Source: Escherichia phage rolling. From it: a stretch of 46,017 nucleotides of DNA. Position numbers and translations under genes: made by a program. Below are positions 1,321 through 42,894 of this stretch, piece after piece. Every line of letters begins with the position of its first letter. The stretch's first letter is position 1. The stretch lies in sequence record NC_073056.1; one strand, 5' to 3'. The notes beneath the pieces were generated by a model. The model searched no databases, had not been told where the DNA came from, and saw only the letters and a list, made by a program, of their open reading frames with translations.

Positions 1321-1350
1321 ACTATAGTGCAACCAACCTATTGGTTGCAA
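1321..1350 (-). promoter_or_regulatory. Leftward sigma70-like promoter (TTGCAA-N18-TATAGT) with inverted ATTGGTTGCA motif pair in the spacer
   Basis: Minus-strand -35 TTGCAA (1345-1350), -10 TATAGT (1321-1326); inverted repeat TGCAACCAA (1328-1336) / TTGGTTGCA (1341-1349); followed by GGGGGC/GCCCCC hairpin 1294-1311. Confidence 0.5.
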
Positions 1351-1366
1351 GTAAATTTTGCCACGT

Positions 1367-1708
1367 TTATAGAATAAATTTTCGGGACCAGATCGCCTTA
1401 AATTCTGGCGGTGGGGTGTCGTCCAGCATGTGGCGCATGAACAACCGGCCCGTCGGGAATACTTCCAATTGCTTGGCGGTCGTGTCCCAGCATTCGCGCT
1501 GCCGGTTGGTCAGATACGCTATCTTGAAGCCTTGCTCTTCATACATGCGCAGCAGCGGCAGCATATCCATGTTCAGATCTTCGCGGACGTGCGCTTTGTG
1601 CCACTTTGCCCAAAAGGTTGATTTCGTTTTTATCCCCGGCACCAGGTCGGCACGCGCATCGCTTGAGCCGTTAATAACGCCATCCAAATCGCAAATCAGT
1701 AATTTCAT
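1367..1708 (-). CDS. HAD-like hydrolase motif protein (113 aa; LICDLDGV)
   Basis: ORF track; N-terminal DxDGV resembles HAD motif I; short for a full HAD fold; ATGA overlap with upstream gene. Confidence 0.6.
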   Translation of the reverse strand: MKLLICDLDGVINGSSDARADLVPGIKTKSTFWAKWHKAHVREDLNMDMLPLLRMYEEQGFKIAYLTNRQRECWDTTAKQLEVFPTGRLFMRHMLDDTPPPEFKAIWSRKFIL

Positions 1709-3930: not shown

Positions 3931-5351
3931 TTGCGCACCTTCTTAGCTTTCATGTATTCCATCAAATCGTCCTGAATATCGCGCTTACCGTCGCGGCGGT
4001 CTGCCACCAGTTCGTCCAGTGTCCCGCGTGCCTGGATAATGTAGACGAATACCGGTCGAGGGTGTCCGGCTTGCATCTGGCGTACCGGCCCGATACGCTC
4101 CACGATCTGCGCAAAGTGCTCATAGTTCCACGTATCCGAGAAGATAGCCAGGTGATGACCGCCGTCCTGCAAGTTGAGGCCGTGACCCGCCGATGCTGGG
4201 TGTGCGAACATGATGGGGATCTCGCCCCTGTTCCACGCTTCCACATCCTTATTGCCCTGCTTGCCTTTACCCATCGCAACGCCGTGGGGAAACTTCTTCT
4301 TCAGACGTGCCAGGTCGTGCTTGTACTGATACGCAACGAGCAACGGCGCGCCGTTCAACTCTTCTACGATACTTTCCAGCGCGTCCAGCTTGGCGTCGTG
4401 AATCTTCACCCACTCGTCGGTCCGTTCGCCGTCCTCGTCTACCTTATACACGGCACCGGAAGCAAGCTGGAGGCACTTGATGGTCTTCGCCGCAGCGTTC
4501 GCCGCTTCCACTGTTCCGCTTTCCAGTTCGGCAAATAGCTCGCTCTCAAACTGGTCGTAAATCTTGCGGGCTTTCTTCGGCAGGTCCACAACAACCGGCG
4601 TGTAGATGGGCTTGTCACATCCGAAGTATTCAGCCGCGTCCACGGTAAGGGATACATCGGACAGGCGTTGTTGGATCTCCTTCTCGGAGTTCTTGAGCGG
4701 GGCGTGCTGCATAGTGAAGCTGCCGGGTTTAACAGGCTTGCTAATAAACCAGCGATCGGTGAATGCTTTATAACTACTACCGAGGCGTTCTCCACCGTCG
4801 ACAAACCACGTCTGCCCCCATAAGTCCTTCAGTCCGTTTGGTGCAGGTGTGCCGGTAAGGTTAATCCAACGATTGACGTGCTTATGTGCGATCGCCGCCA
4901 GTGCGCGTGCGCGCTTACTACCCTGCTTACTTCGGTAGCCTTTCAGCTTAGTGGATTCATCGGCAACAACGACCGTAAAGGGCCACTCGTCGCCGTAATA
5001 CTCGACAAGCCACTCAACCACATCATAGTTAACGCAAACCACGTTAGCGTTGCTCTCAAGCGCTGCAATGCGGTCTTTCTCTGGTCCGGTGCCGTCTACT
5101 ACCAGCAGGGCTGGGAATCTCCATTTTTCTTGTTCCGGGGGCCACGTACCTGACGCAACGCGCAGCGGGGCTAGCACCAGTACGCGGTCTTCCTGGTTGG
5201 ATAGGATGCCAGTCTGGAACATTTTGTTGAGCGCCCACATAGTCGCGCCGGTTTTACCAGACCCCATTGTCGCCCAAATATTACAACGTTCGTGCTTGAG
5301 AATAAACGCGGTTATCAATTTCTGATATTCGCGACGTCGGAAGCGTGCCAT
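3927..5351 (-). CDS. Superfamily 2 (SNF2/DEAD-like) helicase
   Basis: Walker A TMGSGKTG, DExx box VVADEST; start at internal ATG M31 of track ORF 3927..5441. Confidence 0.8.
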   Translation of the reverse strand: MARFRRREYQKLITAFILKHERCNIWATMGSGKTGATMWALNKMFQTGILSNQEDRVLVLAPLRVASGTWPPEQEKWRFPALLVVDGTGPEKDRIAALESNANVVCVNYDVVEWLVEYYGDEWPFTVVVADESTKLKGYRSKQGSKRARALAAIAHKHVNRWINLTGTPAPNGLKDLWGQTWFVDGGERLGSSYKAFTDRWFISKPVKPGSFTMQHAPLKNSEKEIQQRLSDVSLTVDAAEYFGCDKPIYTPVVVDLPKKARKIYDQFESELFAELESGTVEAANAAAKTIKCLQLASGAVYKVDEDGERTDEWVKIHDAKLDALESIVEELNGAPLLVAYQYKHDLARLKKKFPHGVAMGKGKQGNKDVEAWNRGEIPIMFAHPASAGHGLNLQDGGHHLAIFSDTWNYEHFAQIVERIGPVRQMQAGHPRPVFVYIIQARGTLDELVADRRDGKRDIQDDLMEYMKAKKVRK

Positions 5352-5617: not shown

Positions 5618-5791
5618 TTATTCTTGTTCTGCGCGATAGCGGCGCTGCCTTTCACGCTCTTTCTTATTGCGGCACGATTTGCACTCGGCCCGATGACCGT
5701 CTGGACTGCGCGCAGTCTTGCCGGTGTATTTGTGGAACTGGGATAGCGGCTTGATGCATCCGCAATTACTGCAACGTTTTTCTTCAATCAT
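5618..5791 (-). CDS. Zinc-ribbon protein (57 aa; CSNCGC...CKSC)
   Basis: Four Cys in two CxxC pairs; internal ATG (M21) with GAGGA RBS; GCAACCAAT motif at 5848-5856 upstream. Confidence 0.5.
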   Translation of the reverse strand: MIEEKRCSNCGCIKPLSQFHKYTGKTARSPDGHRAECKSCRNKKERERQRRYRAEQE

Positions 5792-5831
5792 TTCTAAAAT
5801 CCTCGATAGTGCTAACCGGCACACTATACCG

Positions 5832-6110
5832 CTACGCGACCAATTCAGCAACCAATAAATTGCAGTCGGCTATGTTGTCTATAACGCGAACGTCAGCACC
5901 GCGGCGGGCCATCCGTTCATGTTCTCGCACCTGGTGCGGCTTCGGTTTTCCGCCGGGGCGCTTCACTTCGACGAATACTACTCTGCCGTTTATGATAATA
6001 ATCAGGTCGGGCGCACCTGCGCGCCCCTCCCATGCCAGTTTGCGGCAGAATCCGCCAACGGCTTTTACCAGCTTCATCAGGTGACTTTGTATCTTGCCTT
6101 CTGGAGTCAT
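5832..6110 (-). CDS. VRR-NUC domain nuclease
   Basis: PD-(D/E)xK-like GAPDLIIIINGRVVFVEVKRPGGKP signature; ATG start; ATGA overlap with next gene. Confidence 0.75.
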   Translation of the reverse strand: MTPEGKIQSHLMKLVKAVGGFCRKLAWEGRAGAPDLIIIINGRVVFVEVKRPGGKPKPHQVREHERMARRGADVRVIDNIADCNLLVAELVA

Positions 6111-6302: not shown

Positions 6303-8594
6303 TTACTTCCTGTACCGGTACATAATGTCGCCTTCGGCGGCAAGTGGGAAACCTTTCGCCCATATAGGCAGGTCGCACATCAGCGCGCAAAGCTCCTCGG
6401 TCGTGTAGTCGTCGGTGTCCGGCACTTCCGTGATCAATTCATCGTGCACTGACAGGACGATTTCATAGCCCGCAGCTTCAACACCAGGCATGGACCATGC
6501 GAGAATATCGCGGCACAACGCCTGTACGATGTTCTCCGTAAGTTTGCCGCCGTAGGTGTACTGGAATCCCCACTGGCGCGTCGTCTGATTCTCGCCCTGG
6601 TATTTGATGCGGGTACTGGTGCGCTTCTTGCCGGTGTCTTCGTCAATTTCAGTCGTGACAGACAGCGCGATGCCGGGGTAGCTCATGATGCGCCCCGACG
6701 GCAACTCAATTTTCAACCACCACCCCGCGGCGTTCGGGTCGTCGCGCTCCTCGTCGAAGGTTGGGTCGTGCTTCGCCTTCGTGCGCACAATCTTGAGCGC
6801 TTTCCTACCGTCCGGGCGAACGTTCGCGCCAGCCCAGTATGCTTTACCCGGATTGCGGATTGCACACAGCACCGCTTCCTCAAGCTCGGCCCAAAAGGCT
6901 ACGGTCTTCGGGTGCGACTCACGCCACATACGTTTGATCGCGTCGCAGGTCAACCACACGTTTTTAGGCAGTATGTAGGTTGGGCGCTCGTCTTTCTTGC
7001 CAGGCTTCGGCGGGCGCTTCGCTTCGTTGATGCGGGCAAACTCATAGCCACGCTTCGCCGCCGCCCAAATGTGATCGGGGAATGTTCCCTTCATTACGTC
7101 AGCCATCGCGTACAGGTCGAGGCCCAGGTTTTTAGCGAACTGCAAGAACGCAGCAACGCCGCCACCATATCCCAGTCCCAATTCACACGCCTTACCAATC
7201 TGGCGTAGGTCTTTGCGGTTGGCCTTGATGTAGTCCGGGTCGAGGCCGAACATCTTACCGGCAGTTTCACAATAGATATCGCGTCCGGCCTTAAACACCA
7301 TTAGCGCGGTTTTCTCGCCCGCGATCCAGGCAAGGCCGCGCCCTTCCACGTTGGAGTAGTCCGCTACGACAAACTTCTTGCCCTTAGCCGGGATAATGCA
7401 CCCGCGAACGGTCGAGGCGGTTAGCTTCGATATGTCATACGCCCAGTGTGCGGTACCGCGTAACAGGGAGTTGATGCCGTTGGTGAGCATATGAGATCGG
7501 ACCCAAAACGAAACGTCGCTCTCACCTTCTCGGCGCTTAATCTTCCCTTCGTGGTCATCACTGTACTCGCCACGTGCCAGGTTTTGAGGCTGAAAGCCTT
7601 TACCGGCCCAGCGTAGTGTGCGCTTTGCCCCACCGTACTGAAGACAACCACGGCGGCGACCATCGGCAGACAGGCCATTTACGAGCGGATTGTATTTAGT
7701 CGATGCCGTTGATGACGCACCGAGGCGCATCTCAATAAGCACTTTGCCCTCGTCGGGGAAGTCTGGATCTTCCAGCAAGTCATTCAGCGTGGATTTCTGC
7801 GCGTTGTGAATTGTGAACGCCGGGGCAATATCACGCAGGATTGGCAGGAAGTCATTGCCAGTCAGCTTACCGCCGAACAGTTCCCAGGCTTCTTCCTTCA
7901 ATTCCTCTTTATGCACCTGCACCGCCTTGATCGCGGCGTTAGCCAGGTCAACGTCCACATAGAAGCCACGGTCGTTAATCAACTGGTCAATAAGCAGGAT
8001 TTCGTCTTCCTTCGGCGTGTTACCCCAGTCCGGTATGCGCCAGTAGACTTCACGCATTGCGATAATATCCAGCGCGGCATAGCGCAGGAATTTAGCCCAT
8101 TCTTCCGGGTGTGTGTCGCGGGTGTAGCGGCGGATTTTGTAGGTCTTAGGGGTAGGCTTACAGAATCGTTTGATCAGCGCCTTGCCAGCCTTATCCTTCG
8201 CGTGCTCTGCGTCAACGCCCAGTACCCGGCATTGCATATCAAGACTACCCGGCAGCGCATGTCGGAAGGCCATAATCATGGTATCTTCGATCTGGCTTAC
8301 CGGCAGGTCAATACCCCACTTTTCACGGATAACCAGGCGGTCAAACAGGAGGCCGTTCGCCATCACTATTTTTGCTTTTTTGCGGGTTACCTGGCGGAGC
8401 GCCTTGCGTAGTTCACGCGGCATCGTGGGAGATTCAGTGGCGTCCCATGTCTGCACGCGGCCCTCGTCTATGGCGTAGGTGCAAATCATAATCTCGGTGG
8501 TGGGGTGTTCCGCGTAGGCATACGCACCTGCTTTCTTCAGGTCCACCCCGCTAAACGTCTCGGTGTCGAGAAATAGGCGTTCGAAGTCTTTCAT
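6303..8594 (-). CDS. DNA polymerase, family A, with 3'-5' exonuclease domain
   Basis: Exo I motif FLDTETFSG; Pol motif A DYSNVEGR, motif B KACELGLGYGG, motif C SVHDELITEV. Confidence 0.95.
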   Translation of the reverse strand: MKDFERLFLDTETFSGVDLKKAGAYAYAEHPTTEIMICTYAIDEGRVQTWDATESPTMPRELRKALRQVTRKKAKIVMANGLLFDRLVIREKWGIDLPVSQIEDTMIMAFRHALPGSLDMQCRVLGVDAEHAKDKAGKALIKRFCKPTPKTYKIRRYTRDTHPEEWAKFLRYAALDIIAMREVYWRIPDWGNTPKEDEILLIDQLINDRGFYVDVDLANAAIKAVQVHKEELKEEAWELFGGKLTGNDFLPILRDIAPAFTIHNAQKSTLNDLLEDPDFPDEGKVLIEMRLGASSTASTKYNPLVNGLSADGRRRGCLQYGGAKRTLRWAGKGFQPQNLARGEYSDDHEGKIKRREGESDVSFWVRSHMLTNGINSLLRGTAHWAYDISKLTASTVRGCIIPAKGKKFVVADYSNVEGRGLAWIAGEKTALMVFKAGRDIYCETAGKMFGLDPDYIKANRKDLRQIGKACELGLGYGGGVAAFLQFAKNLGLDLYAMADVMKGTFPDHIWAAAKRGYEFARINEAKRPPKPGKKDERPTYILPKNVWLTCDAIKRMWRESHPKTVAFWAELEEAVLCAIRNPGKAYWAGANVRPDGRKALKIVRTKAKHDPTFDEERDDPNAAGWWLKIELPSGRIMSYPGIALSVTTEIDEDTGKKRTSTRIKYQGENQTTRQWGFQYTYGGKLTENIVQALCRDILAWSMPGVEAAGYEIVLSVHDELITEVPDTDDYTTEELCALMCDLPIWAKGFPLAAEGDIMYRYRK

Positions 8595-9654: not shown

Positions 9655-9678
9655 TTGGTTGCTAATGTACTTGGTTGC
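9655..9678. promoter_or_regulatory. Pair of TTGGTTGC motifs in SSB upstream region
   Basis: TTGGTTGC at 9655-9662 and 9671-9678, between membrane protein gene and SSB gene. Confidence 0.4.
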
Positions 9679-9695
9679 GTTTCCGCGGTCAAGTG

Positions 9696-11839: not shown

Positions 11840-12358
11840 TTAATCTTCTAATTCGAAATACGTTTCTACGATTTCTTTTAAATCTTTGTGGAAGTCTTCG
11901 ACGTCGTCATCTTCCAGCTTGGCGACGGATTTAATTTCGAACGCTTCCAGCAGATCATCAAATTCGTCGTTTGCGTCGTCGTCATCTCCGCCCGCAATAA
12001 TAGCGGCATACTGTTTGATTTCGTCGCGCATTTCTTTAAGCGGATCGGCATCTTTCTTGCCTTTGCCTTTCGCCGGTGCTTTCTTAGATTTCGCCGGGGC
12101 TTCTTCCTCGTCCGCGTCGTCGTCTTCTTCTACGGCTTCTTTCTTAGCCTTGCCCTTTGCGGGCGCTTTTTTGGTCTTTGCCGGGGCTTCGTCTTCAGCA
12201 TCGTCATCTTCGGCTACTTCTTCTTTCGCCTTGCCCTTTGCCGGGGCTTTCTTCGCTTCCTGTTTACCAACGGCAGCGCCAGCAGTTTCATAATGCTTAG
12301 CGATGGTTTCCAGTGCTACAACGCCGCGAGTGATCAGGTTTACGATTTGCTCAAACAT
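11840..12358 (-). CDS. Charged low-complexity protein with three KKAPAKGKxKK / acidic repeats; first leftward early gene
   Basis: ORF track; ATG with GGAG RBS; repeats EEVAEDDDAEDEAPAKTKKAPAKGKAKK x3. Confidence 0.7.
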   Translation of the reverse strand: MFEQIVNLITRGVVALETIAKHYETAGAAVGKQEAKKAPAKGKAKEEVAEDDDAEDEAPAKTKKAPAKGKAKKEAVEEDDDADEEEAPAKSKKAPAKGKGKKDADPLKEMRDEIKQYAAIIAGGDDDDANDEFDDLLEAFEIKSVAKLEDDDVEDFHKDLKEIVETYFELED

Positions 12359-12419
12359 GGTATATCTCCGATTGGTTAATTTTAAGTGTTCGGTGCGGTA
12401 TGCCCCGTCAACGAGGTGA

Positions 12420-12449
12420 ATAATAGATTGGTTGCATGCGGGGTGTCAA
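12420..12449 (-). promoter_or_regulatory. Leftward early promoter (TTGACA-N18-TATTAT)
   Basis: Minus-strand -35 TTGACA (plus 12444-12449), -10 TATTAT (plus 12420-12425); ATTGGTTGCA motif (12427-12436) fills the spacer. Confidence 0.55.
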
Positions 12450-12460
12450 CAACTAATTTC

Positions 12461-12497
12461 AAAAAAAAAAAAGCGCCGAGGCAAAATGCGACGGCGC
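12461..12497 (-). terminator. Minus-strand intrinsic terminator in divergent control region
   Basis: GCGCCG/CGGCGC stem preceded on plus strand by A12, giving hairpin + U12 on minus-strand RNA. Confidence 0.55.
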
Positions 12498-12568
12498 TAA
12501 CCAATAAGAGACAATGAGACGTGATTATTATTACACGCGTGCGCGCCCGTTTCAATATTCAAAAGGAG

Positions 12569-12597: not shown

Positions 12598-12628
12598 CGT
12601 TGGTCATTAACCAATAGGAGACAGAACA

Positions 12629-12958
12629 ATGCATATCAACGACGCAATCGAAATGTTAACCAATGCTGTTAGCGGTGAGACAAGCCGGTCCTGGGCTTAT
12701 ACCGATGCCGTGGGTGAGGTGCTATTTGAAATCGAACGTCTGCGCAGTGTCGAAAAAGAATTGCGCGCCAAGCTGGAATTGCTAAACGGTACGGCAGCAA
12801 GCAAGTTGCAAAAGCACAACGAAGAAATGGAAGAATACAAAAAGCAGGTTATCCGTTTACGCGACGAGGGCAAGTCCTGGGCGATGATTGCCGAGTTGAC
12901 AGGAATTAATCAGAGCACCGTACGCTCATGGGTACGCAATAATAAAACTTCTAAATAA
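12629..12958 (+). CDS. HTH DNA-binding regulator (109 aa)
   Basis: C-terminal helix-turn-helix SWAMIAELTGINQSTVRSWVRN; ATG with AGGAG RBS. Confidence 0.75.
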   Translation: MHINDAIEMLTNAVSGETSRSWAYTDAVGEVLFEIERLRSVEKELRAKLELLNGTAASKLQKHNEEMEEYKKQVIRLRDEGKSWAMIAELTGINQSTVRSWVRNNKTSK

Positions 12959-15230: not shown

Positions 15231-15339
15231 TTTGTGCGCGTATTGGTTGCCGATATGGGAATTCCCATATCGCTAAAAGATTAAATTTTGCGCGCATTGG
15301 TTGCCATTTTGGGTGTTTTTAGCTGGTCGCATTGGTTGC
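15222..15339 (+). repeat. Tandem duplication of primase 3' end with three ATTGGTTGCC motifs and a 22-bp perfect palindrome
   Basis: AAAGATTAA..GCGCG.ATTGGTTGCC at 15222-15251 and 15276-15305 (~27/30 identical); palindrome CGATATGGGAATTCCCATATCG at 15251-15272; third ATTGGTTGC at 15331-15339. Confidence 0.7.
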
Positions 15340-15371
15340 CGTGTAGTGTAAATATAGTGAATAGTTATGCA

Positions 15372-15547
15372 GTTTTATTGCATAAAGTAAGCGGGACAAA
15401 AAGCGGGACAAACATGGGGCGGGACAAAGCGGGACAGCACCCCCTGTCCCGCCCGGATGGCGCGGCTTGCGGAGGAGCGGGACAGGCGGGACAAACCTCA
15501 GTCTTTCAGACTAGACGGGGTCAGTTGGCCCCCCTCGTCTGAGACTG
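15372..15547 (+). repeat. Iteron array 1: GCGGGACA x7 with TGCATAA motifs and conserved ~50-bp imperfect hairpin
   Basis: GCGGGACA at 15391, 15403, 15419, 15429, 15477, 15487 plus inverted TGTCCCGC at 15445; hairpin 15499-15547; AT-rich stretch just upstream. Confidence 0.85.
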
Positions 15548-15701
15548 CATAAAATCCGGGATTGCATAACGCACGGCAGCATGATGTGAATTGCGGTCGT
15601 CGATGAACTAGGCAACCAATGCGTGTTGAATAATGGAGAGTGAAAAATGCAGTTTGCAGTTGCAGCAGATAGCGATCAACTTTTTCATACGCATGATTAA
15701 T

Positions 15702-15742
15702 ATTGGTTGCATTCAGCCTGGCACCCTGCTAGATTGGTTGCA
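15702..15742 (+). promoter_or_regulatory. Promoter-like element with two ATTGGTTGCA motifs upstream of gene 15764
   Basis: ATTGGTTGC 15702-15710 and ATTGGTTGCA 15733-15742; TTGCAT-N17-TAGATT reads as a sigma70-like promoter. Confidence 0.45.
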
Positions 15743-15763
15743 CACCAACAAGAGGATTGAACA

Positions 15764-16090
15764 ATGAGAGCATTAATCTGGAATTACTCACTGGCAATGG
15801 CGAAGGCACAAGAAGCGGCGGAGTTCGCCGGTGAGGGGGCGGAAGCGGTAGAAAGACTATCGGCAGCGTGGTCCGTTGTTCGCGTCACGCAGCAGGCCAT
15901 CGCCTGTATGCTGGAGCGCCGCTTCGACACGATGGAAGAGATCCAGCCGCTGGCTTCTGCCATCCAGGACTACGCGCTTGCATTCGCCCGTGAGCGCCTG
16001 GCCTATCGCCTCGGTATTGGCGAGAAGGCATTGGCAAACGTCGCCCGGATTAAAGCCCAGCGCGAACTATTCGCCAAGCTTGCGAAATAA
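15764..16090 (+). CDS. Hypothetical protein (108 aa)
   Basis: ORF track; ATG with AGAGGA RBS. Confidence 0.7.
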   Translation: MRALIWNYSLAMAKAQEAAEFAGEGAEAVERLSAAWSVVRVTQQAIACMLERRFDTMEEIQPLASAIQDYALAFARERLAYRLGIGEKALANVARIKAQRELFAKLAK

Positions 16091-16099
16091 GGGGTCAAA

Positions 16100-16369
16100 A
16101 TGAGCCGTAGTCGAGCTAAACAGCTTTCTTGGCACATTCCCCTGCATTGCATACGAATATGGGCTAAGAACGCGATTGAGGGCGATTCCGTGTACTGGTG
16201 CTATCGCGATGACGTGAAGCCACTAACGCAGACTCGCTACTTGCACCAGTTCGCAGCACAACATGATTTCTATGTGCGGACTTCCTTGCAACCAATGGGA
16301 ATACGTATTACATTACGCCGGAAGCCCGCCGTTGAGCGGGTAGGCAAACACTGGAGACTGAGCAAATGA
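16100..16369 (+). CDS. Hypothetical protein (89 aa)
   Basis: ORF track; ATG with AAGGGG RBS. Confidence 0.65.
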   Translation: MSRSRAKQLSWHIPLHCIRIWAKNAIEGDSVYWCYRDDVKPLTQTRYLHQFAAQHDFYVRTSLQPMGIRITLRRKPAVERVGKHWRLSK

Positions 16370-17422: not shown

Positions 17423-17439
17423 TTATGCAAGCGTGATAT

Positions 17440-17474
17440 AGTCCCAGTGAGCTAAAACTTACTGGGACTTTTTT
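17440..17474 (+). terminator. Intrinsic terminator abutting the holin start codon
   Basis: 9-bp stem AGTCCCAGT/ACTGGGACT, 12-nt loop, T5 tract ending 1 nt before ATG 17475. Confidence 0.55.
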
Positions 17475-18697: not shown

Positions 18698-18762
18698 TTG
18701 CTTGACTTGCAACCAACATAAGGGCCATACTGCAACCAATCAACGAGAAGGAGTAACACACT

Positions 18763-18843
18763 ATGACACGCAATGATATTTATGTACTGGCAATCTGGTC
18801 CGCCGCCGCATTCATCGGTATGGTTATTTGCGAATTGCTATAG
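18763..18843 (+). CDS. Putative 26-aa hydrophobic peptide
   Basis: ATG with AAGGAG RBS at ideal spacing; MTRNDIYVLAIWSAAAFIGMVICELL; below track cutoff. Confidence 0.3.
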   Translation: MTRNDIYVLAIWSAAAFIGMVICELL

Positions 18844-18904
18844 CCCGCCGCCATAAGGACCGTGGTATATTGTCCCCGGACCCATAATCAGGAAGTAAAT
18901 TAAT

Positions 18905-20047
18905 ATGCACCCTCAAACTAAAATTACCGACGAGCAATTGATCGCTGAATTGCAATCTGGCACTACCTCGAAAGATATTGCGAAGAAATACGGCATTGCA
19001 CTTCGTAATGTCTATATGCGCAAAGCCCGCCTGTCGAAGAAAGGTATTGGACACGGCAACGATGCTGTAATCCGTAAGCGCGTTGCCGATGGCTTCGGCG
19101 TTAAGCGTGTATCCGCCCTGGTGCGTGGCAATGGCGAGGAGGTAATGTCCTGGGTCATCACCGAGCAGGACAAGGAGCGCCAACTCGAAGCAATGCGCGC
19201 CGTTGTCGAGGGCATGAATAGCGAAATCACACCGGCAGCACCAGTGAGCGCTCCGCCAGTCCCGATCCAGGCGCTTGACCTGCTTAACCTGTATACCGTG
19301 TCTGACTTCCACCTGGGAATGTTGGCGTGGGGCGAGGAAACTGGCGAAGACTGGGATATGGCAATCGCCGAAGACCTTTTTTACCGCTGGTTTGTCGAGG
19401 CCTTCGCACGCGCACCGGACGCTGGCACTGCCGTTATCAATATCCTCGGTGATATGGCTCATTTTGATAGCCTTGATGCCGTCACGCCAGCCAGTGGTCA
19501 TGTACTGGATGCCGATACCCGCTACCAGAAGTTGGTCCGCTACATGATTCGCATGGTGCGCAACGTGGTTGAACTGGCGCTGCAAAAACACCATAAGGTC
19601 AAACTGCTAATCGTCCAGGGTAATCATGATGAGTCCGGTATGATTTGGCTGGCTGAGATGTTTAATACCCTGTACGAGAACGAGCCGCGCGTCGATGTGG
19701 ACACGTCCCCGGACGTATACAAAATGGTGCAGCACGGTAAAACAACGCTGTTCTTCCACCACGGACACAAAGCACGCTTTGACGCTATCGAGCCGGTCAT
19801 GATTTCTAAATTCAGACAGGCTTTCGGGTCCAGTGAGTACAGCTACGCGCACGTAGGCCACTTGCACCACCAAAAGATTGTAGAATCCCGCAACATGATT
19901 GTTGAACAGCACCGGACCCTTGCCGCGAAAGATGCATATGCAAGCCGCGGCGGTTGGCTGTCCGGTCGTAGTGCAAACGTCATCACCTATAGCGCCAACT
20001 ACGGCGAAGTAGCGCGCTTAACCATTAGCCCGGAAATGTTGAAATGA
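18905..20047 (+). CDS. HTH domain fused to calcineurin-like metallophosphoesterase
   Basis: N-terminal HTH TSKDIAKKYGIALRNVYMRKARL; phosphoesterase motifs GDMAHFD, QGNHDE, HHGHK, HVGHLHH. Confidence 0.75.
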   Translation: MHPQTKITDEQLIAELQSGTTSKDIAKKYGIALRNVYMRKARLSKKGIGHGNDAVIRKRVADGFGVKRVSALVRGNGEEVMSWVITEQDKERQLEAMRAVVEGMNSEITPAAPVSAPPVPIQALDLLNLYTVSDFHLGMLAWGEETGEDWDMAIAEDLFYRWFVEAFARAPDAGTAVINILGDMAHFDSLDAVTPASGHVLDADTRYQKLVRYMIRMVRNVVELALQKHHKVKLLIVQGNHDESGMIWLAEMFNTLYENEPRVDVDTSPDVYKMVQHGKTTLFFHHGHKARFDAIEPVMISKFRQAFGSSEYSYAHVGHLHHQKIVESRNMIVEQHRTLAAKDAYASRGGWLSGRSANVITYSANYGEVARLTISPEMLK

Positions 20048-20274: not shown

Positions 20275-20303
20275 TTGGTGGGCTTTTTTGTGCCTGTTAT
20301 AAT
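20275..20303 (+). promoter_or_regulatory. Sigma70-like promoter with extended -10 (TTGGTG-N17-TGTTATAAT) upstream of terminase genes
   Basis: Consensus TATAAT at 20298-20303 preceded by TG; weak -35 TTGGTG 20275-20280. Confidence 0.45.
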
Positions 20304-25915: not shown

Positions 25916-25955
25916 AGAAAATAATTCTGGGGCCGTGATGGCCCCTTTTTTGTTA
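25916..25955 (+). terminator. Terminator hairpin, right copy of the 40-bp direct repeat
   Basis: 30/30 identical to 25340-25369 then T6; duplicates the last codons of Rz1 plus the hairpin. Confidence 0.7.
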
Positions 25956-26717
25956 GCGCGGAATACCGCAAATCTCGTTGAGTGTTTTCACGTCCAGCGC
26001 CACCGCCGTGGACTTCGTCTTGTTCTGATATGGAATGAACTGTTCAACTTCAGGCCACGCCTTGATCAGCTTCTTATCGGTATTGTGCATATCCAGCACG
26101 CCGGTAACAGTTAGCTTGAACGCGTCATACTTTGCGCGCAACTCGCGGCGGGCCTTGTCATTTCGGTCCAGGCGCTTGCAGAAATCATGATCGGCCGGGT
26201 AGTCTACGCGTCCGCGCGGGAGATATATCGGCAGCACTTTTCCGTCCTCATCCACTTCGCACACTGACGCGAGCATAATTTCCGCGTACCCCGGTACAAT
26301 ATCGCTAACGTCAGGCGCGAGCGTATTCATATATTTCTCTTCCCAGTATCCGCGATGCCGGCGGTAGCTGTATCCGTCACCGCTCATATACAGGGATCGG
26401 ATGTTACCGCCTGCGTTGATTTCGAAATTGTCGCAGTAAACGCACCCAATACCCTTCTGACGGTCTTTGTTATAGCTATACGTCGCCTTGTCGGTGTAAA
26501 CGCTGACGCCATACATCTGCGACTGGTTATTGCGGATTTCTTCGATATATGCGCGTAGCTCGGCGAACGTGCGAATGCCTTTTGGCATACAGTCCAGCGT
26601 AATTGCGTACGCCAGGTCGCGAGAGTCCATCATGATTGATTTGGCTTCAGTCGCGATTTCGTGGTCGCGCAGGATGTTAGCCAGAATCTGGTTTTTAATG
26701 TCTTTTGTCAGTCGCAT
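25953..26717 (-). CDS. Hypothetical protein (254 aa), moron gene antisense to the late operon
   Basis: Track ORF 25953..26762 from internal ATG (M16) with GAGGA RBS; no family recognised. Confidence 0.65.
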   Translation of the reverse strand: MRLTKDIKNQILANILRDHEIATEAKSIMMDSRDLAYAITLDCMPKGIRTFAELRAYIEEIRNNQSQMYGVSVYTDKATYSYNKDRQKGIGCVYCDNFEINAGGNIRSLYMSGDGYSYRRHRGYWEEKYMNTLAPDVSDIVPGYAEIMLASVCEVDEDGKVLPIYLPRGRVDYPADHDFCKRLDRNDKARRELRAKYDAFKLTVTGVLDMHNTDKKLIKAWPEVEQFIPYQNKTKSTAVALDVKTLNEICGIPR

Positions 26718-26739
26718 TTGTGTTTCCTCATTGTTGGTG

Positions 26740-26811
26740 TGCAACCAATATAGTGCAACCAATACCTGTATTGCAAGCGAATTTTGCGATTATTTTTATC
26801 GCTGATAATAT
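26740..26811. promoter_or_regulatory. Back-to-back divergent promoters (leftward for moron genes, rightward for scaffold/capsid)
   Basis: Leftward: TTGCAA (26771-26776) N18 TATATT (plus 26747-26752), with TGCAACCAAT at 26740-26749 and 26754-26763; rightward: TTGCGA (26784-26789) N16 TAATAT (26806-26811). Confidence 0.5.
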
Positions 26812-32336: not shown

Positions 32337-32661
32337 GCGGGACGGATCGGGACGTCCCGATTTGTCCCGTTTTGTCCCGCCCCCAGTAAAACTGCATACC
32401 TACCCACTTTCATTGCATAAACTCAAAGCGGGACAAGCGGGACGCCCCGATCCGTCCCGCCCATTAAATGTGCATACCTATTCAGATCTCGTGCATAAAA
32501 CAAACGGGACAAAAAGCGGGACAAACATGGGGCGGGACAAAGCGGGACAGCACCCCGTCCCCGTCAGTGCTGCCGCGGGTTTTAGCCGATCGGGACAGGC
32601 GGGACAAAGCCCAGTCTTTCAGACTAGACGGGGGTCAGTTGGCCCCCCTCGTCTGAGACTG
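32337..32661 (+). repeat. Iteron array 2: GCGGGACA-type repeats (>=14 copies) with TGCATAA motifs and the same conserved hairpin
   Basis: Copies at 32337, 32347, 32428, 32437, 32516, 32532, 32542, 32599 and inverted copies; palindrome CGGGACGTCCCG 32348-32359; ~52-bp and ~65-bp blocks near-identical to array 1; hairpin 32612-32661. Confidence 0.85.
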
Positions 32662-42814: not shown

Positions 42815-42894
42815 GGTATCATCTCCTATATTTGGTTGGGTTTTAGTATTGCACCGCTCAACCAAGAATGCAACCAATTTATGAGGATTCAGCT

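Follow-up and report, generated by a model that had tools for sequence, protein, structure and literature searches.

The DNA analysed here, referred to as the window, is the 46,017-nucleotide sequence of Escherichia phage rolling (NC_073056.1), and our subject is an asymmetric 8-mer, TTGGTTGC, that recurs in its promoter regions. On balance we think it probable that this word is a protein-binding operator set in the core of sigma70-type early and moron promoters, the best candidate for the factor being a zinc-ribbon protein of 57 residues encoded by the phage itself. By megablast, the window belongs to the genus Dhillonvirus (HK578/SO-1-like virulent siphophages of Escherichia coli) and is ~92% identical to phages CHD5UKE2 and Bas83 across 20 kb. 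The gene map was carried over from Bas83 via tblastn. Relatives comprised 48 Dhillon-like loci from phage records and IMG/VR, in which ten regulatory regions were aligned, and a polymerase-anchored sample of 80 IMG/VR loci whose DNA polymerases range from 98% down to 30% identity. Among the numbered loci, L005 is phage K1H and L006 is Klebsiella phage VLCpiS11a.

The 8-mer and the promoters that carry it

The conserved core TTGGTTGC occurs 22 times in the window, whereas an order-2 Markov model predicts ~2.5 copies, and it is one of the genome's two most over-represented words. The longer form TTGGTTGCA has 12 exact copies against 0.53 expected, a number reached by none of 100 shuffles, and ATTGGTTGCA with at most one mismatch has 18 against 3.5. 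Non-coding DNA makes up 7.9% of the window and holds 17 of the 22 copies (binomial p = 3e-15); two of the five nominally coding ones (5848 and 42870) lie a few codons from a gene end, beside regulatory DNA. The original prediction, which had described a recurrent motif of intergenic regions, is confirmed in this respect. It was also right about every place it listed: 1328-1349 (an everted pair), 2888-2914 (two direct copies), 5847-5856, 9655-9678 (two), 12427-12436, 15242-15340 (three), 15702-15742 (two), 18708-18740 (two), 26740-26763 (two) and 42859-42878, the last of these being a copy at 42869-42878 with an adjoining degenerate TTGGTTGA. Copies that it had missed are 15612-15619 (minus strand), 16288-16295 (minus strand, inside a gene) and the coding copies 37407 and 37974.

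The prediction further took the motif for half of a palindrome. This could not be upheld: a search for the 14-base-pair palindrome TTGGTTGCAACCAA that allowed two mismatches turned up nothing in the window but single copies of the word. The starts of paired copies lie 10-34 base pairs apart in direct, inverted or everted arrangement, and an asymmetric unit so spaced lends no support to half-sites of a symmetric dimer.

The features concerned are listed below by coordinates and strand. Promoter positions come from a consensus scan, hand reading and conservation, and positions of the word are given relative to the predicted transcription start.

1321-1350, minus: promoter P1, TTGCAA-18-TATAGT by consensus scan, upstream of the DUF6378 gene 758-1276
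1329-1336, minus: TTGGTTGC copy of P1 at -22 to -15, 2 nucleotides before the -10 TATAGT; invariant in 25 related genomes
1341-1348, plus: GCAACCAA on the gene strand of P1, overlapping the -35 TTGCAA; everted pair with 1329
2881-2913, minus: promoter P2 with two direct copies, 2906-2913 at -39 to -32 (TTGCGT is the -35) and 2889-2896 at -22 to -15
5618-5791, minus: gene of the 57-residue Cys4 zinc-ribbon protein with a basic C-terminal helix, 'Lar-like' in Bas83; singled out by co-occurrence
5823-5855, minus: promoter P5 of the zinc-ribbon gene, copy 5848-5855 at -39 to -32 (TTGCTG is the -35), -10 TATAGT; a degenerate copy TTGGTCGC at about -27 to -20
9655-9692, minus: promoter P9 of the gene for a single-stranded-DNA-annealing protein, TTGACC-17-TACATT; reverse copies GCAACCAA at -21 to -14 (9671-9678) and -5 to +3 (9655-9662)
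12420-12449, minus: promoter of gene 11840-12358 (minus), TTGACA-18-TATTAT, 11 of 12 consensus positions; reverse copy 12428-12435 at -22 to -15
12629-12958, plus: gene of a 109-residue protein with a coiled coil and a sigma-region-4/LuxR-like helix-turn-helix (HTH); present only in Dhillonvirus
15243-15339, plus: three direct copies of the sub-family (G)CGC(R)(Y)ATTGGTTGCC immediately after the helicase-primase gene and bordering the GCGGGACA repeats; promoter geometry not evident
15612-15619, minus: fourth member of this CGCATTGGTTGCC sub-family, in inverted orientation, beyond the GCGGGACA repeats
15703-15741, plus: promoter P15b, upstream of gene 15764-16090; copy 15703-15710 at -39 to -32 (TTGCAT is the -35), 17-nucleotide spacer, -10 TAGATT; second copy 15734-15741 at -8 to -1
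16288-16295, minus: copy inside gene 16100-16369, kept in three phages (the window, Bas83 and SO-1)
18702-18739, plus: promoter P18, TTGACT-18-CATACT (TATACT in relatives), upstream of small open reading frame 18763-18843; reverse copies at -29 to -22 (18709-18716) and -6 to +2 (18732-18739)
26741-26776, minus: promoter P26, TTGCAA-18-TATATT, copies at -22 to -15 (26755-26762) and -8 to -1 (26741-26748); predicted to drive the Nmad5 gene 25953-26717 on the strand opposite to the late genes
42845-42877, minus: promoter P42, ahead of a small gene on the minus strand within the tail region; copy 42870-42877 at -39 to -32 (TTGCAT is the -35), -10 AATACT; degenerate TTGGTTGA at about -27 to -20

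Around the word lie -35-like and -10-like hexamers 16-18 base pairs apart, which are kept in relatives. Sites returned by the scan as TTGACA-18-TATTAT (12449..12420), TTGACC-17-TACATT (9692..9664), TTGCAA-18-TATAGT (1350..1321), TTGCAA-18-TATATT (26776..26747) and TTGACT-18-CATACT (18702..18731) each enclose a copy. The claim that the word often lies in a sigma70 spacer, immediately before the -10, is confirmed at 1329 (followed by acTATAGT), 26755 (acTATATT) and 2889 (atTATCTT), and also by the reverse copy at 12428 (tcTATTAT), which sits inside the window's strongest sigma70 match, TTGACA-18-TATTAT.

An unbiased histogram of the offsets between -10-like hexamers and the 49 copies of the window, VLCpiS11a and locus L180 (0.64 copies expected per offset, Poisson) revealed a strict register. 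On the same strand, ten copies have the hexamer at offset +27 (p = 2e-9), which places the word at -39 to -32 with its TTGC starting the -35; five have it at +10 (p = 5e-4; word at -22 to -15), and ten at -4 (p = 2e-9; word at -8 to -1). On the opposite strand, nine copies share offset +8 (p = 3e-8), where GCAACCAA directly follows the -10. All preferred positions fall between -39 and +3. With at least three positions and both orientations relative to the -10, the word does not fit a phage promoter element of a single register, which had been offered as an alternative to operators. Most promoters have two copies in combinations of these positions, such as 15703/15734 (-39 to -32 with -8 to -1), 26755/26741 (-22 to -15 with -8 to -1) and 2906/2889 (-39 to -32 with -22 to -15).

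Promoters with the word serve the leftward and rightward early operons and the opposite-strand (moron) genes of the late region. The promoters of the holin, gp58, small terminase and scaffold genes, read by eye, are instead extended -10-like (TGnTAnAnT) and lack it. Such sites lie at ~17434-17442, 18863-18871, 20295-20303 and 26803-26811 (TGaTATAGT, TGgTATATT, TGtTATAAT and TGaTAATAT), have no clear -35 and may constitute a late or lysis promoter class.

Two further observations concern the leaders downstream. The sequence AACCAA(T/C) recurs 2-10 nucleotides upstream of Shine-Dalgarno sequences in many 5' leaders (12370-12379, 12610-12616, 15743-15750, 18733-18741, 26732-26739 and 42826-42834), sometimes pairing with a copy of the word as a TTGGT-N5-ACCAA mini-palindrome. 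Directly after P18, the unannotated open reading frame 18763-18843 (plus) encodes a hydrophobic product, MTRNDIYVLAIWSAAAFIGMVICELL, has a good ribosome-binding site and is kept in relatives.

Conservation and phyletic distribution of the word

Across the 48 loci, 135 of 140 alignment columns within TTGGTTGC copies are invariant, compared with 729 of 1089 other non-coding columns (Fisher p = 2e-16). The bases between paired copies and in promoter spacers vary freely. In P2, the bases between the two copies change and the -10 is TATCTT in the window and TATATT in most relatives, whereas both copies are invariant; in P1, a 31-nucleotide block is identical in 5 whole genomes. At P9, the -35 TTGACC and both GCAACCAA copies never change, while half of the spacer is variable, as is the -10 at its third base (TA[A/C/G]ATT), and the upstream gene has been replaced in some genomes. 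The promoter of gene 11840-12358 (gp46) is instructive in that relatives have a one-nucleotide insertion or deletion between the -35 and the word, so that the distance from word to -10 is kept but that from word to -35 is not. TTGACA, TTGACC and TTGCAA are conserved, and -10 hexamers vary at tolerated positions only. Judged by these alignments, purifying selection acts on the word, and the hexamers around it behave as real -35 and -10 elements.

In the polymerase-anchored loci, the word is enriched only in Dhillonvirus, the VLCpiS11a-like clade and L180, with 8-15 copies per ~20 kb against ~0.8 expected. Jersey/Kaguna-like relatives have 0-4 copies, and more distant polymerase relatives at most one or two. 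The sister clade formed by the VLCpiS11a-like phages and L180 carries the same word at the same orthologous promoters as the window, and in VLCpiS11a TGTTGGTTGC is the top 10-mer. The two-copy layout of P15b recurs in the VLCpiS11a-like phages, L180 and L222. By contrast, the whole genome of K1H, which also infects E. coli, has 5 copies, all coding, and its orthologous early promoters hold another spacer word, TGAATAGT. In K1H this second word (29585, 31731, 13026, 35261 and 36594) occupies the spacer of TTGACA-17/18-TATAGT, and it also lies within three near-identical promoter repeats of 35 nucleotides.

A scan of IMG/VR for two copies within 30 base pairs was of little use, the matches being mostly tandem repeats and chance; iteron-like clusters were met in the unrelated contigs L041, L101 and L075. 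One match, L117 (65% G+C), has ten TTGGTTGCAC copies at 6313-6626, mostly in pairs 10 base pairs apart, between a VapE-type primase gene and a VRR-NUC gene of a distantly related replication module; these copies may be chance or a sign of wider distribution, and we regard them as a weak lead. Coding DNA of the window has roughly ten times the expected number of a different 8-mer, ACGGCAAC / GTTGCCGT (and GCTGCCGTTG), at 24 sites (2972, 6698, 23440 and 39124 among them); it is enriched in K1H, VLCpiS11a and SO-1 too.

The factor that may read the word

Three genes track TTGGTTGC: those for a small N6-adenine methyltransferase, Nmad5 and the 57-residue zinc-ribbon protein. Only the last is present in every word-bearing lineage, namely Dhillonvirus, the VLCpiS11a-like phages, L180, L221, L222, L239 and L263. 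The DNA polymerases of L221 and L239 are only 26-27% identical, L222 and L263 are short contigs, and these loci were reached through distant zinc-ribbon homologues. Copies of (T/C)TGGTTGC lie upstream of the zinc-ribbon gene in L221, L222, L239 and L263, and the orthologous P5 promoter carries a word of the TTGGTTGC type in these four as well as in the VLCpiS11a-like phages and L180. The arrangement of a -35 copy plus a start-site or spacer copy is found upstream of the gene in L221, L222 and L239, with a further pair before Nmad5 in L221. The gene thus co-occurs with the motif and the motif lies upstream of the gene, as comparative pairing of a regulator with its operator would have it, albeit among related lineages. 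Homologues with the loop SSVAS instead of YTGKT occur in phages that lack the word, and in L221 a variant word, CTGGTTGC, accompanies a variant zinc-ribbon protein.

An AlphaFold model of the 57-residue protein (predicted local distance difference test, 81) has a Cys4 zinc ribbon and, C-terminal to it, a basic helix of 19 residues; fold searches gave nothing significant. In PHROG profiles, the protein aligns with part of the endonuclease VII and HNH endonuclease families and with the C-terminal end of a sigma-factor family of phages. A profile search with the zinc-ribbon module gathered 3832 cluster representatives, mostly tandem arrays of 2-8 modules, and Pfam applied to ten representatives recognised Stc1-like zinc modules and fusions to Endonuclease_7, HNH and Bro-N/T5orf172. 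Tandem arrays and nuclease fusions are the pattern of a DNA-binding accessory module. The Lar family of Pfam did not match, and the name 'Lar-like restriction alleviation protein' stems from a PHROG label. A scan of bacterial genomes for the zinc-ribbon subtype returned one distant hit and added no prophage lineage. In L239 (9980-12998) and L221 (3186-5074), the zinc-ribbon gene lies beside DNA-modification genes (MT-A70 or C5 methyltransferase, Nmad5), a hint that the gene module to which it belongs is concerned with DNA modification or anti-restriction.

Because the word takes both orientations at shared promoter positions and relative to transcription, we infer that it is bound by a protein rather than acting as an RNA signal or as a directional contact for polymerase. 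A protein bound over the -35, in the spacer or over the start site would compete with RNA polymerase. Since the promoters have good hexamers and positions from -39 to +3 are those at which such competition would occur, repression is the simplest reading, and the likeliest action would be shut-off or feedback limitation of early transcription. The extended -10 promoters, free of the word, would serve lysis and structural genes. The binding factor would be specific to this phage lineage. If it is the zinc-ribbon protein, it would bind one word per molecule and control its own promoter; monomeric binding of single words would explain the free spacing and orientation of the copies. We propose, tentatively and from sequence comparison, that the free-standing 57-residue module, whose family is otherwise met as tandem arrays and as an appendage of homing-type phage nucleases, might be a monomeric regulator that reads (T/C)TGGTTGC, two molecules per promoter shutting off or throttling all early and moron promoters, its own included.

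Among the other proteins that might bind the word, the 109-residue HTH protein and the HTH-phosphoesterase (18905-20047) were the regulators put forward in the original prediction, and neither passes the phyletic comparison. Both are found in none of seven sister-clade loci that keep the word at orthologous promoters, and are missing as well from several deeper lineages with the word in its usual architecture, yet the phosphoesterase, gp58, is 76% identical in K1H, which lacks the word; moreover, Pfam and PHROGs recognise no HTH in gp58, only a metallophosphoesterase or DNA-repair exonuclease. The 109-residue protein, first gene of the rightward early operon, would bind as coiled-coil dimers to two words at flexible spacing, in the manner of NarL on its heptamers. 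It is the window's only HTH protein that Pfam recognises (HTH_23, HTH_28, Sigma70_r4_2), with similarity to HTH domains of the LuxR type and of sigma region 4. All Dhillonvirus loci that span the region have it, and a degenerate TTGGTCAT...AACCAA (12600-12616) lies after the promoter of its gene. Nevertheless, neither tblastn nor phmmer found a homologue in the VLCpiS11a-like phages or L180, where an XRE/DicA-like protein takes its place and the recognition helix is not common to word-bearing lineages; a replaced regulator with some 20 retained operators is hard to credit, so that we consider this explanation unlikely. The XRE/DicA-like protein itself was rejected as the binder, as it occurs with and without the word and shows no shared helix signature in word-bearing lineages. 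Slightly less likely still is a role akin to that of DnaA boxes, in which a replication protein such as the helicase-primase, with its conserved N-terminal zinc finger, would bind the word; clusters at the origin would then be for replication, and the promoter copies would couple early transcription to it. Clusters do lie directly behind the helicase-primase gene beside origin-like repeats (window 15243-15619, VLCpiS11a 4793-5323, and ten copies in L180 2978-3743), ten copies lie right behind the primase gene of the distant L117, and the helicase-primases of word-bearing clades are 45-49% identical to each other but 32-34% to that of K1H, which lacks the zinc-finger segment. Most copies are, however, dispersed at promoters in precise register to the -10, the window type of helicase-primase was not found in L239 (19.5 kb) or in the 5.2-kb contig L221, which both carry the word, and L117 may be a chance match of a pattern search that selects repeats. 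Also, the origin-type repeats (GCGGGACA versus CTCGCAA) and the C-terminal winged helix of the helicase-primase differ between clades. This winged helix was rejected as the binder because clades with the same word have different recognition regions in it, which follow the origin repeats of each clade; it is these repeats that the winged helix probably reads. Of lower probability again is a DNA-binding protein of the enterobacterial (Enterobacterales) hosts recruited by several phage lineages. It would account for an identical word in phages of E. coli, Sodalis and Klebsiella whose HTH regulators differ, and ATTGGT, the first six bases, presumably resembles half-sites read by PdhR, UxuR/ExuR and other GntR regulators of the FadR type. 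Yet we know of no E. coli regulator whose site matches the conserved word, and to our knowledge none of the consensuses of sigma54, CytR, PdhR/UxuR, RutR, IHF and DnaA fits the conserved 8 bases; literature searches for the word, by itself or combined with phage, promoter, operator or repressor, yielded nothing but primers and papers on other subjects. Sister phages of the same host use another word in the same promoters, and the joint variation of CTGGTTGC and the zinc-ribbon protein in L221 also speaks against a host factor.

The two remaining explanations dispense with a dedicated protein. RNA polymerase, as the host sigma70 holoenzyme or in a phage-modified form, might read the word directly, as a TTGCAx -35 extended upstream or as a -10/discriminator/start module TAnATTGGTTGCA. 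In favour of this, all non-coding copies fall within or close to sites that look like promoters, and TTG occurs twice in the word. Ten copies provide the -35 with a 17-nucleotide spacer, and in ten a TAnA before the word completes a TAnATT -10. That all copies are -35 elements was rejected, since a -10-like hexamer 16-18 nucleotides downstream of TTGC exists for 5-6 of 20 only. A contact made by polymerase sits badly with at least three registers and both orientations relative to the -10, and with relatives in the same host that manage without the word; furthermore, the TTGG upstream of the -35 hexamer is invariant, at a place where we know of no sigma70 contact. We hold this to be just as improbable as control by the 109-residue protein. 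Action of the word in RNA, through hairpins or pairing with other transcripts that affect processing, termination or translation, appears very unlikely. The region 1328-1349 can form a 9-base-pair stem, which a terminator scan picked up, but on the plus strand only; it has 4 G-C pairs, and its tail AGTAAATTTT is weak. On the minus strand, which carries the genes nearby, the stem is followed by CTATAGTT, and the site does not qualify as an intrinsic terminator. TTGGT-N5-ACCAA mini-hairpins precede three ribosome-binding sites, and a candidate small RNA contains AUUGGUUA, complementary to AACCAAU beside two Shine-Dalgarno sequences. Against this, most pairs are direct repeats unable to pair with each other, copies at -39 to -15 lie upstream of predicted starts, copies occur in both orientations to transcription (12 sense, 8 antisense), and Rfam finds no family anywhere in the window. 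Compensatory changes cannot be scored because the copies do not vary.

Several points weigh against the reading of the word as an operator of the zinc-ribbon protein. Every promoter position derives from consensus and conservation. The case for repression is one of geometry, and polymerase might just as well be recruited by a copy over the -35, in the way of Pho boxes. The word-bearing lineages are related, so the co-occurrence of the zinc-ribbon gene goes back to few independent events, and Nmad5 and the small N6-adenine methyltransferase co-occur with the word almost as well. Enrichment in L239 is weak when taken alone (6 copies against 2.9), and promoter 12420-12449 has one copy only. The CGCATTGGTTGCC sub-family at 15243-15619, finally, has no visible promoter and flanks origin-like repeats, which the operator model leaves unexplained.

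Taken together, the original interpretation stands in part. The word does mark promoter regions, adjoins the -10 in spacers and is best read as an operator, whereas the named regulators, the palindromic dimer site and the element of one register are not supported. We therefore class the TTGGTTGC set as phage cis-regulatory operators, a known kind of element.

Neighbouring features, significance and parallels

The CGCATTGGTTGCC sub-family consists of 15243, 15297, 15332 and the inverted 15612. These four copies lie on both sides of the GCGGGACA repeats that follow the helicase-primase gene; the 13 other non-coding copies are at promoters spread over 40 kb. Like DnaA boxes, the sub-family may have a second role near the origin. 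Two clusters, at 15380-15500 and 32340-32610, are made up of GCGGGACA(AA) repeats together with TGCATAA words, have long stretches in common and correspond to 'region A' and 'region B' of SO-1. The cluster behind the helicase-primase gene looks like an origin. Its equivalent in VLCpiS11a (L006 4743-5297) is built of CTCGCAA/TTGCGAG.

In the divergent control region, the adjoining gene is 11840-12358 on the minus strand, as annotated in SO-1, and we corrected the Bas83-derived map accordingly: Bas83 annotates 11888-12379 on the plus strand, SO-1 and others the minus-strand gene. The minus strand is favoured by the promoter, a terminator behind the gene and a full-length match to phrog_3127; the product has KKAPAKGKAK repeats between acidic stretches. 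The same region holds the candidate small RNA 12462-12555 (minus), with a promoter TTGAAA-17-(TG)tAATAAT at 12555..12527 followed by ~58 nucleotides that comprise a free 5' stretch and a terminator hairpin GCGCCG-N13-CGGCGC (-16.7 kcal/mol, z = -3.0) with U12. The region is invariant in Dhillonviruses, except that L018 has two compensatory changes of stem pairs. The 5' part, UCUCUUAUUGGUUA, is complementary (14 of 14, with one G-U) to the ribosome-binding region of the HTH gene, UAACCAAUAGGAGA (12608-12621); the match to the corresponding region of gene 11840-12358 is almost as complete. Insertions and deletions of one nucleotide argue that the plus-strand open reading frame annotated at 12462-12555 in Bas83 is not coding. 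Elsewhere, the polynucleotide-kinase-like gene 1367-1708 (minus) has a 3' end shortened by a deletion relative to Bas83, SO-1, Maverick and AV129.

As common phages of E. coli, Dhillonviruses are used in therapy collections and in work on defence systems. The literature that we searched held nothing on how they time their genes, nothing relevant on promoters of Dhillonvirus, HK578, SO-1 or Jerseyvirinae, and no transcript data for the genus. The word maps about ten early and moron promoters, including those driving candidate anti-defence genes, and offers a simple handle for testing how they are controlled. If the zinc-ribbon protein binds it, it would be a new, very small DNA-reading module and a new class of phage transcription factor, a compact genome-wide switch of early genes common to Dhillonvirus and several undescribed relatives, and one half of a matched protein-operator pair for synthetic circuits. 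If a host protein binds instead, the word would reveal an unknown E. coli regulator.

Repressor operators inside the promoter core are familiar from Arc of phage P22 at Pant, TetR at tetA and the LexA boxes, all of dyad symmetry. Like them, the word overlaps the -35, the spacer or the start, often with more than one site per promoter. Unlike those operators, which serve one or few promoters, it is asymmetric, lies in either orientation 10-34 base pairs apart and occurs in essentially all early promoters; the inverted repeat of fixed spacing expected for a dimeric HTH protein is absent, as is the palindrome. In being short, asymmetric, single or paired, direct or inverted, and variable in spacing and promoter position, the word comes closer to the NarL/NarP heptamers and CytR octamers, which are read by host regulators of E. 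coli with HTH domains and known signals. Its sequence is unrelated to theirs, its putative binder belongs to a phage lineage, and the three copies of the CytR octamer GTTGCATT in the window are there by chance.

Two activator systems invite comparison as well. The MotA box of phage T4, found in dozens of middle promoters, is a 9-base-pair word of one orientation at about -30 that replaces the -35 and activates via sigma appropriation. Our word is likewise phage-specific, recurs in one temporal class of promoters and overlaps the -35 region beside a normal sigma70 -10, but with at least four preferred registers on both strands and canonical -35 hexamers present it does not conform to such boxes. 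Late promoters of phage P1 depend on Lpa and have a ~9-base-pair element near -22, an inverted repeat, which replaces the -35 and activates late genes. The copies at -22 to -15 resemble it in lying directly upstream of a sigma70-type -10, whereas they mark early genes and accompany good -35 hexamers.

The DnaA box is an asymmetric 9-mer found in both orientations near the origin and in promoters regulated by the bound protein. Asymmetry, both orientations, variable spacing and clustering near a putative origin and in promoters are shared by our word, which differs in lying mostly in promoters and in having origin-type repeats of another sequence as neighbours. As for the candidate protein, it matches the profiles of the Stc1-like and endonuclease-VII-associated zinc modules (PF12898; PHROGs 5558, 1035, 2340 and 2255) and differs from these in being a single free-standing module with a basic helix.

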